64,000 nt of DNA from Escherichia phage E20. Shown here piece by piece: positions 27,690 through 28,190 of the stretch (positions within the stretch are counted from its first letter, which is position 1; every line of letters begins with the position of its first letter). The stretch is from the sequence record OP745616. One strand, written 5' to 3'. A model generated the notes under the pieces. The model was not told where the DNA came from, searched no databases, and worked only from the letters and a program-made list of their open reading frames with translations. The position numbers and the translations under genes are program-made.

Positions 27690-28190
27690 ATGTCAGAAGA
27701 AATTAAAGTTCACTTCACCAACTACATTGGAACCAAGTGTGTAAATGGTTTCAAGATGAACAAGGAAACATATTGCAAACTTCGTGGATGGGATGTGCCT
27801 GCTAATGAGGACCCGTTAGAAGTAGGTTACTTAGTAGAATACCCGGATTCTAAACCTAACCATGAGCAATTCCGTGGTTATATTAGCTGGTCACCAAGGG
27901 CTGCATTTGAAGCTGCATATTGTGATGTAGACAAAGGCTGCACGTTTGGTCATGCCGTAGAGCTTCTTAAAACAGGCTTCAAACTAGCCCGTAAAGGCTG
28001 GAACGGTAAGGGAATGTACATTGAGTATGTTGCCGCTGAAGAATGGAACAGCAGTAGCCTAGAGCGTCCAGGATTTGCCGATGAACTGAAGCCTCGACCG
28101 TGGATTGGTATCAAAACTGCTGATGACCAGTTTATGCCTTGGGTTCCTTCTCAATCGGATGTATTAGCCGAAGATTGGATAATTCTGTAG
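27690..28190 (+). CDS. DUF2829-domain protein (Tad2-like anti-Thoeris candidate) with extra N-terminal domain
   Basis: ORF frame 27354..28190; ATG 27690 with RBS gaggtag; C-terminal ~85 aa [28 protein letters not shown]...[30 protein letters not shown] matches the DUF2829 consensus pattern as recalled. Confidence 0.5.
   Translation: [166 protein letters not shown]

Follow-up and report, generated by a model that had tools for sequence, protein, structure and literature searches.

A predicted two-module anti-defence protein joining a Tad2-like domain to a mobile N-terminal domain in a sponge cassette of Escherichia phage E20

The 64,000-nucleotide (nt) stretch of the Escherichia phage E20 genome analyzed here (sequence record OP745616; the whole of this stretch is referred to as the window) belongs to an E. 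coli podophage of the N4-like group, in the genus Gamaleyavirus (G7C/Bp4-like). Beside its virion RNA polymerase (vRNAP) gene lies a short cassette of small genes bounded by terminator-like hairpins. The gene under study, located in this cassette directly downstream of an Acb4-family sponge gene, encodes a 166-amino acid (aa) protein made of two domains (Table 1). Its open reading frame (ORF) runs on the plus strand from the ATG at 27690 to the TAG at 28188-28190, and its product is the ortholog of N4 gp49 (YP_950527.1; 77% identity over the full length by BLASTP, E=2e-97), with a full-length match to phrog_872 (1e-66). Considered as a whole, it is best explained, with a probability of roughly 0.7 in our estimate, as an N4 gp49-type anti-defence protein of two modules, a Tad2 sponge and a mobile N-terminal domain (N-domain).

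Table 1. Genes, protein domains and sequence signals around the two-domain gene, in window positions.
Feature	Position	Strand	Evidence or remark
Primase	19822-22032		
Sak4-like	22089-22841		
SSB (single-stranded DNA-binding protein)	22882-23685		
RuvC-like protein	23685-24239	+	phrog_159, 3.5e-42; at the N4 gp46 position (by position alone)
Gene at the N4 gp47 position (by position alone)	24241-24690	+	phrog_7641; weakly, a RusA-like resolvase profile
ORF-poor stretch, ~1.9 kb	about 24700-26590		
tRNA-like gene, no anticodon assigned	26593-26665		
tRNA-Ile(AAT)	26674-26752		
Terminator-like hairpin	26984-27015		terminator scan
Cassette	27022-28930		between terminator-like hairpins
Acb4-family sponge gene, N4 gp48 ortholog	27179-27571	+	PF13876, E=7.1e-25
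Terminator-like hairpin, 8-bp stem AAGCCCTC/GAGGGCTT	27652-27672	+	terminator scan
GAGG ribosome-binding site, 5 nt 5' of the ATG	27681-27684	+	read from the sequence
Gene for the two-domain protein (N4 gp49 ortholog)	27690-28190	+	ORF, translation, BLASTP, phrog_872
N-domain, residues 1-83 (core about 10-77)	27690-27938	+	AlphaFold2, hhalign; motifs YIGTK, GYLVEY, GYISWSP
Tad2-like (PF11195/DUF2829) sponge domain, residues 85-165	27942-28184	+	Pfam, Foldseek, Protein Data Bank (PDB) phmmer
Codons W104 and N105 (GWNG loop), predicted contacts of the ADP-ribose (ADPR) signal	27999-28004	+	alignment to SPO1 W25/N26
Variable insert, residues 112-139, between Tad2 core strands	28023-28106	+	two alleles among Enquatrovirinae
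Codons W151 to D157 (PWVPSQSD), second half of the predicted ligand pocket	28140-28160	+	alignment to SPO1
Small gene, 92-aa ORF, same cassette	28200-28478	+	phrog_9565
Sequestin-family gene	28393-28629 (probable ATG 28426)	+	PF21825 (crAss001_48), E=1.6e-17
Small gene, same cassette	28637-28930	+	phrog_29107
Bidirectional terminator-like hairpin, closing the plus-strand cassette against the vRNAP gene	28934-28959	both	terminator scan
Virion RNA polymerase, 3610 aa	28965-39797	-	

The boundaries of the gene were fixed by its upstream signals and its homologs. The ribosome-binding site is kept in five Gamaleyavirus genomes, as is the hairpin between the Acb4 gene and the two-domain gene at orthologous Gamaleyavirus loci; this hairpin is not present in N4, where the gp48 stop and the gp49 start overlap with nothing of the kind in between. 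Another in-frame ORF begins further upstream, at 27354, and would encode 278 aa. Since it overlaps the Acb4 gene and includes the conserved hairpin, and since homologs are ~150-170 aa long and conserved only from about residue 10, it was rejected and the start was placed at 27690. At 80-99% identity, the 2 kb around the gene matched 71 phage records, of which nearly all belong to Escherichia phages.

Homologs of the two-domain protein number at least 374 (E<=0.001). The best 120 of these are almost all 147-178 aa long, with 92-100% query coverage and identities down to 45%. The first-pass annotation of this DNA, a model's reading of the letters, had taken the architecture for one not yet characterized. 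It is a common one, represented by N4 gp49 and phrog_872, and the other half of that statement stands, as we found no experimental test of a protein combining this N-domain with Tad2, such as N4 gp49, in the literature. Database labels of the orthologs vary, from hypothetical or DUF2829 to Thoeris anti-defense 2-like and, in phi1_146050, Mimir124 and 24-32N, anti-CRISPR protein; elsewhere in GenBank, DNA coding for DUF2829 carries the labels methionyl-tRNA synthetase (Vibrio phages ZX1018 and PG288) and terminase large subunit (K57alpha1.2). In Bas96, the closest relative, ACG stands in place of ATG at the start-codon position (L002:8998-9000), and the annotated gene therefore begins at the internal Met23, so that strands one and two of the N-domain would be missing. 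This may reflect a genuinely shortened protein, initiation at a non-canonical codon or an error in sequencing.

The C-terminal domain is a member of the Tad2 family, as the first-pass annotation had proposed from its DUF2829 signature. Residues 85-165 matched Pfam PF11195 (Thoeris anti-defense 2-like) with E=1.7e-24 and 86.6 bits (gathering score 25), in an alignment that spans positions 2-72 of the 73-position profile. When the PDB was searched by sequence, ModTad2 (9eib/8v3e) came out as the closest solved relative, with E about 1e-20 (7e-21 to 2.7e-20), followed by SPO1 Tad2 (8sme, 1.4e-14), AcrIIA7/HgmTad2 and SptTad2, all of these matches being limited to residues 84-165. An AlphaFold2 monomer model built from 43 homologs reached a mean predicted local distance difference test score (pLDDT) of 90.4 and a predicted template modelling score (pTM) of 0.77, and its C-terminal half consists of a helix (residues 86-94) followed by strands. 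When compared with solved structures by Foldseek, the model matched SPO1 Tad2, ModTad2 and HgmTad2 with a probability of 1.00 and target-normalized TM scores of 0.61-0.87 (0.72-0.87 for SPO1 Tad2 and 0.71-0.83 for ModTad2). The protein differs in size from characterized Tad2 members, which are single-domain proteins of ~90-104 aa.

Residues forming the ligand pocket are retained as well. In SPO1 Tad2, 1''-3' glycocyclic ADP-ribose (gcADPR) is held mainly by W25, N26, W73 and D79, with I63, T65, D67, H71, S76 and T78 as auxiliary residues (Yirmiya et al.). In a HMMER alignment, all four principal residues mapped to identical ones in the window protein (W104, N105, W151 and D157, respectively), as did I63 (I141), T65 (T143), D67 (D145) and S76 (S154), so that identity extends to 8 of the 10 residues listed as contacting the ligand or coordinating water; T78 is conservatively replaced by S156, and H71 corresponds to a different residue, M149. 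W104, N105, W151, S154 and D157 were invariant across the 43-sequence family alignment. The ligand residues of HgmTad2, namely W87 and the mutated W21/N22 and S90/T92/D93, align with the same pocket positions of the window protein (W104, N105, W151, S154, S156 and D157), and the mutated ones fall in the same motifs. Because profile, fold and pocket residues agree, the Tad2 assignment is as secure as sequence and fold allow, and the C-terminal domain is very probably a signal sponge. It most likely forms the usual Tad2 homotetramer, in which pockets built by W104, N105, W151 and D157 from two protomers would sequester an ADPR-derived signal made by Toll/interleukin-1 receptor (TIR) proteins, namely 3' cyclic ADPR (3'cADPR)/gcADPR and/or histidine-ADPR (His-ADPR). 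With its signal sequestered, the Thoeris effector would stay inactive, allowing infection to go on.

The anti-CRISPR labels carried by the three homologs mentioned above, together with sequence similarity to 9kzr and 8kbi (E about 1e-11 to 1e-12), could point to an inhibitor of the AcrIIA7 type. The similarity found concerns the DUF2829 part only, and type II-A CRISPR-Cas9 is, to our knowledge, not a usual system of E. coli. The work of Yirmiya et al. also speaks against this explanation, which we regard as scarcely credible.

The Tad2 domain has a variable insert between its core strands (residues 112-139). One allele of this insert is shared by the window, Bas96, PGN829.1 and a Klebsiella phage, and the other is found in N4, Bp4 and SP5M. 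Between the window and SP5M, the nonsynonymous distance (dN) was 0.005 for the N-domain and 0.286 for the C-terminal domain; since the N-domains are near-identical while the C-terminal domains are far apart, these sequences indicate recombination between the two halves of the gene. Pairwise Nei-Gojobori estimates among seven orthologs gave omega values of 0.03-0.13 for the N-domain versus 0.08-0.36 for the Tad2 domain, where the excess change falls mostly within residues 112-139. By these estimates, the N-domain is under strong purifying selection. Columns conserved at 90% or more in proteins carrying both domains numbered 27 of 75 in the N-domain and 5 of 85 in Tad2, a difference inflated by the choice of the set according to N-domain score. 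A further count, of 26 of 75 N-domain positions at this level, is inflated for the same reason.

An insertion after beta2 forms a second pocket in HgmTad2, which binds cyclic GMP-AMP (cGAMP), cGG and cUG, and in MoTad2, which binds cUMP/cCMP. By its position, the insert of the window protein would correspond to this insertion and may likewise provide an additional binding site for cyclic (di)nucleotides. The main target of the Tad2 domain could then be a cyclic nucleotide of CBASS (cyclic oligonucleotide-based antiphage signaling system) or Pycsar bound at that pocket instead of a Thoeris signal. The ModTad2-like length of the insert is compatible with this, and two sharply different alleles in close phages are what a specificity determinant would be expected to show. 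However, the canonical residues of the ADPR-signal pocket are all intact and invariant, the cassette already has an Acb4 gene for CBASS signals, and no correspondence at the level of residues was obtained with the cyclic dinucleotide or cUMP pocket, which makes such a main target unlikely. Whichever ligand is preferred, the two-allele insert offers a natural experiment on sponge specificity.

The existence of an additional N-terminal domain of ~80 aa, also proposed in the first-pass annotation, was borne out by structure prediction, in which residues 1-83 fold separately and confidently as a small beta-rich unit (pLDDT 90.2). In the AlphaFold2 monomer, this unit comprises strands at residues 10-13, 17-24, 45-51 and 64-69, a short strand at 77-78, and helices at 25-32 and 70-76. 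Conserved Cys and Trp residues had been noted in it. The 43-sequence alignment upheld the tryptophans, W34 and W67, and none of the cysteines, as C17, C29, C78 and C84 all lie outside invariant or nearly invariant columns. The other conserved residues are G14, K16, M23, Y28, R32, P37, E40, the G46-Y-L-V-E-Y51 motif, D53, N57, the G63-Y-I-S-W-S-P69 motif, F73 and Y77.

No credible match to residues 1-83 was obtained in Pfam (E<=10), NCBIfam or a PDB sequence search; a hit to Taq exonuclease (E=0.07) was at chance level and was discarded. Foldseek against a copy of the PDB without the RyR Tad coordinates matched Tad2 structures alone. The description of this domain as unknown thus holds for Pfam, NCBIfam and PDB sequence searches and fails on one point, since a solved relative exists in the N-domain of RyR Tad, gp68 of Pectobacterium phage vB_PatP_CB1. 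The crystal structure of the latter shows a five-stranded sheet in which beta1 is swapped between two protomers, and the C-terminal RyR-like domain of gp68 binds gcADPR (10.64898/2026.06.04.730250). The alignment of the N-domain matched gp68 residues 1-86 by hhalign with a probability of 96.8% (E=2.9e-10; 67 columns, gp68 2-68), hmmsearch with the N-domain recovered gp68 at 8e-10, and BLASTP aligned the GYLV.Y...Y.SWSP region (E=2e-7). Furthermore, a structural search of BFVD returned a RyR-domain protein of Yersinia phage TG1 that is related to gp68 (E=1.2e-4, query-normalized TM 0.73). On the strength of these alignments, the N-domain is homologous to that of RyR Tad and, by analogy, probably dimerizes through a similar beta-strand swap. 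The N-domain was also considered as a Tudor/SH3-like adaptor for docking to host machinery, for example RNA polymerase, with a role of the gene in N4-type transcription instead of counter-defence; this seems very improbable.

Relatives of the N-domain turned out to be both numerous and diverse in architecture. A word-indexed search with the N-domain alone recovered only two proteins, and an exhaustive profile search was needed; among 1.84 billion cluster representatives, this search found 2,689 at E<=0.001 and 1,316 at E<=1e-10. Partner domains were tabulated with Pfam for the best 148 of the 2,689 representatives. A Tad2-like partner was present in 50 of them, Sequestin in 42, Acb4 in 10 and the Acb2/Tad1 hairpin in four, with WDGH occurring once and AP2 plus HNH_3 once, the latter two in the same protein (P0218). 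Tabulation of 150 representatives with our own hidden Markov models gave N-domain plus Tad2 in 46, N-domain plus Sequestin in 37, N-domain plus Acb4 in 7, several reverse orders and triple fusions, and 50 proteins with no recognized partner. Among these 50 are an Acb2-like group and several proteins whose tails resemble a degenerate Tad2; others have extensions of unknown type. In about one-third of the best-scoring N-domain proteins, 45-120 aa without a recognized family follow at the C-terminus (for example in P0200, P0222, P0240, P0268, P0210 and P0251). These extensions, which by fusion logic may have functions of the same kind, are candidate new sponge or anti-defence domains. In the 354-aa P0218, an HNH/AP2 homing-endonuclease segment separates the N-domain from the Tad2 domain, and this looks like an endonuclease insertion into a gene of the N-domain-Tad2 type.

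The same network was apparent in other collections. In PHROG, the N-domain occurs with Acb4 in phrog_9467, with Sequestin in phrog_32732 and with RyR in phrog_18865, and reciprocal matches link the N-terminal parts of these families to that of phrog_872. The schitovirus Stenotrophomonas phage Philippe encodes a stand-alone Tad2 of 94 aa (L008:507-791) and a 227-aa Acb4-N-domain-Sequestin triple fusion with the N-domain in the middle (L008:955-1638). By tblastn, the N-domain was found in 121 of 50,697 phage records of INPHARED, in phages of many types; in the window, it is present as a single copy. Two identities for this domain were discarded. It is not Sequestin, a helical hairpin, as it gave no PF21825 match and PF21825 is matched by a separate gene of the window. 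Neither is it Lockin, an elongated beta protein forming hexamers that is found in no complete INPHARED phage genome. Tad3-Tad8, described as binders of ThsB and effectors, were considered as further candidates.

Two explanations of the N-domain have to be weighed against this distribution. It may be a structural accessory only, that is, a portable beta-swap dimerization module that stabilizes or cross-links the Tad2 tetramer and other sponge oligomers, with a gain in avidity or stability but without a ligand or target of its own. In RyR Tad, the N-domain assembles as a domain-swapped dimer and helps the protein to dimerize, it shows no anti-Thoeris activity alone while the C-domain is sufficient, and the known partners are all homo-oligomers with interface pockets, so that a generic dimerizer could help any of them; moreover, the N-domain stands mostly at the N-terminus, on a short linker. 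Yet Tad2, Acb4, Sequestin and Acb2 oligomerize and work as stand-alone proteins, and the N-domain is reported to be often encoded alone (10.64898/2026.06.04.730250), where a bare dimerizer would have no purpose. Very strong conservation of polar and aromatic loop residues (K16, R32, W34, E40, D53, N57, Y64, S66 and W67), and the fusion of its partners to one another as independent active modules, likewise speak against a purely structural part, which we retain as a tentative alternative.

An autonomous anti-defence activity, through binding of another signal or of a host immune protein, is favored by analogy, because the domain is reported alone, its loop residues are extremely conserved and the other nodes of the network are all independent sponges; we place it a little short of even odds. 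The same fusion-network logic led to the discovery of Sequestin (10.1101/2025.07.12.664507). In a bolder and more tentative form of this proposal, the N-domain would constitute an unrecognized autonomous anti-defence family, either a sponge for an untried signal or a binder of host immune proteins, that has been missed for want of a Pfam model.

The position of the gene is consistent with an anti-defence role. An anti-signalling hotspot of N4-like phages has been described between the primase and vRNAP genes, among SSB genes, Sak4/RecA-like genes and known signalling inhibitors, and contains Tad2, Tad3, Acb4, Sequestin, Bes1 (RuvC-like) and Bes2 (bioRxiv 10.64898/2026.06.04.730250, June 2026). 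The locus of the two-domain gene agrees with this definition in its place between primase and vRNAP and in its SSB, Sak4-like and signalling-inhibitor genes, and its RuvC-like protein is probably the counterpart of Bes1. As the first-pass annotation had it, the gene lies between an RNA-gene region, formed by the two tRNA-type genes, and the oppositely oriented vRNAP gene. The ORF-poor stretch upstream of these tRNA-type genes resembles a 1.5-kb gap without annotated gene between gp47 and gp48 of N4.

Within the cassette, the upstream neighbor belongs to PF13876, the Acb4 sponge family (PMC11722364); N4 gp48, which matches this profile at 8.8e-35, is an Acb4 that triggers the Panoptes guard system (PMC12657230). 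PF21825, matched by the downstream gene, is the Sequestin family of 3'cADPR sponges (10.1101/2025.07.12.664507). With these matches and that of Tad2, three of about six cassette genes belong to proven sponge families. The Sequestin ORF overlaps, in a different frame, the 3' end of the 92-aa ORF preceding it, and Bas96 is without the Sequestin stretch, having one gene and then vRNAP. The two small genes of phrog_9565 and phrog_29107 share the terminator-bounded cassette with the three sponge genes and are candidates for further anti-defence functions. Terminators are annotated in SP5M at a place equivalent to that of the bidirectional hairpin closing the cassette. A short cassette of this kind would express the two-domain gene together with the Acb4 and Sequestin sponges and, through their co-expression, would blunt both CBASS and Thoeris signalling.

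Several observations weigh against the proposal of a Tad2 sponge coupled to a second anti-defence module. The N-domain is acidic, with a median net charge of -4.1, and known sponge pockets are positively charged (10.1101/2025.07.12.664507). The only N-domain tested so far, gp68_N, was inactive alone against type I Thoeris, for which gp68_C was sufficient, a result that fits a purely structural role (10.64898/2026.06.04.730250). As for the Tad2 half, members of the family differ in the systems that they inhibit (type I, II and IV Thoeris, CBASS and Pycsar), ligand specificity cannot be read from sequence, and the closest solved relative is ModTad2, a His-ADPR binder, and not SPO1 Tad2. Finally, we found no biochemical or genetic test of the window protein or of N4 gp49 in the supplements of Tad2 diversity screens, the Panoptes papers or general literature searches. 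The motifs GYLVEY, YISWSP and SWSPK were not found in the supplements of a screen of 18 Tad2 homologs, which suggests that this screen included no N-domain fusion.

Both the Tad2 assignment and the N4-like hotspot are already documented in the literature or databases, as is the fold of the N-domain, and Tad2 is among the best-understood phage counter-defence families, in which one more member is ordinary in itself. The three-sponge cassette (Acb4, Tad2 and Sequestin) beside the vRNAP gene is a property of the model phage N4 and its therapeutic-type relatives. In the window, Tad2 comes permanently attached to a small and very conserved domain, which also occurs alone and is fused elsewhere to members of five sponge families unrelated in structure (Tad2, Sequestin, Acb4, the Acb2/Tad1 hairpin and RyR), and we found no published statement of this N-domain as the common partner of five different sponge families. 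If it has an activity of its own, it would define a new anti-defence family. N4 gp49-type proteins would then inhibit defence in two ways, and the ~2,700 cluster representatives would point to many more genes against signalling, some of them with partner domains of unknown type. If it is instead a universal oligomerization handle, it would explain a recurrent design principle of sponges. Guilt-by-fusion logic, as used for Sequestin, leads for the N-domain to a cheap experiment in a tractable phage, with N4 gp49 as the subject.

Comparison with known systems places the window protein closest to N4 gp49. Both have two domains and lie downstream of an Acb4 gene, gp49 standing directly beside the vRNAP gene gp50, and RefSeq labels gp49 a DUF2829 domain-containing protein; unlike the window protein, it carries the other allele at residues 112-139. 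The solved Tad2 sponges, namely SPO1 Gp34.65 (8sme/8smf/8smg), ModTad2 (8v3e/9eib), HgmTad2/AcrIIA7 (8kbi) and SptTad2 (8wjd), share the Pfam family, the fold and the W/N...W...D pocket residues. They are single-domain proteins of 88-104 aa, whereas the window protein adds the 83-aa N-terminal domain. RyR Tad offers the nearest parallel to this addition, as a homologous N-domain is there paired with a gcADPR sponge and encoded in the N4-like primase-to-vRNAP hotspot. The N-domains of the two proteins are only ~27% identical, and the C-domain of RyR Tad is all-helical, RyR Repeat12-like and dimeric, in contrast to the beta-sheet fold and tetramer of Tad2.

Multi-sponge fusions form the last group for comparison and include Acb4-Tad2 (Pasteurella phage Pm86), Tad2-Sequestin, Sequestin-Acb4 and Acb4-Sequestin (phage Ab09). 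In these proteins both halves are proven sponges, whereas the N-domain is a module with a proposed anti-defence role and no Pfam model; because of this missing model, Tal et al., who screened for fusions with Pfam, presumably could not have caught it. Like the window protein, these fusions combine small anti-signalling modules in one polypeptide, and the N-domain belongs to the same fusion network, including its triple fusions.

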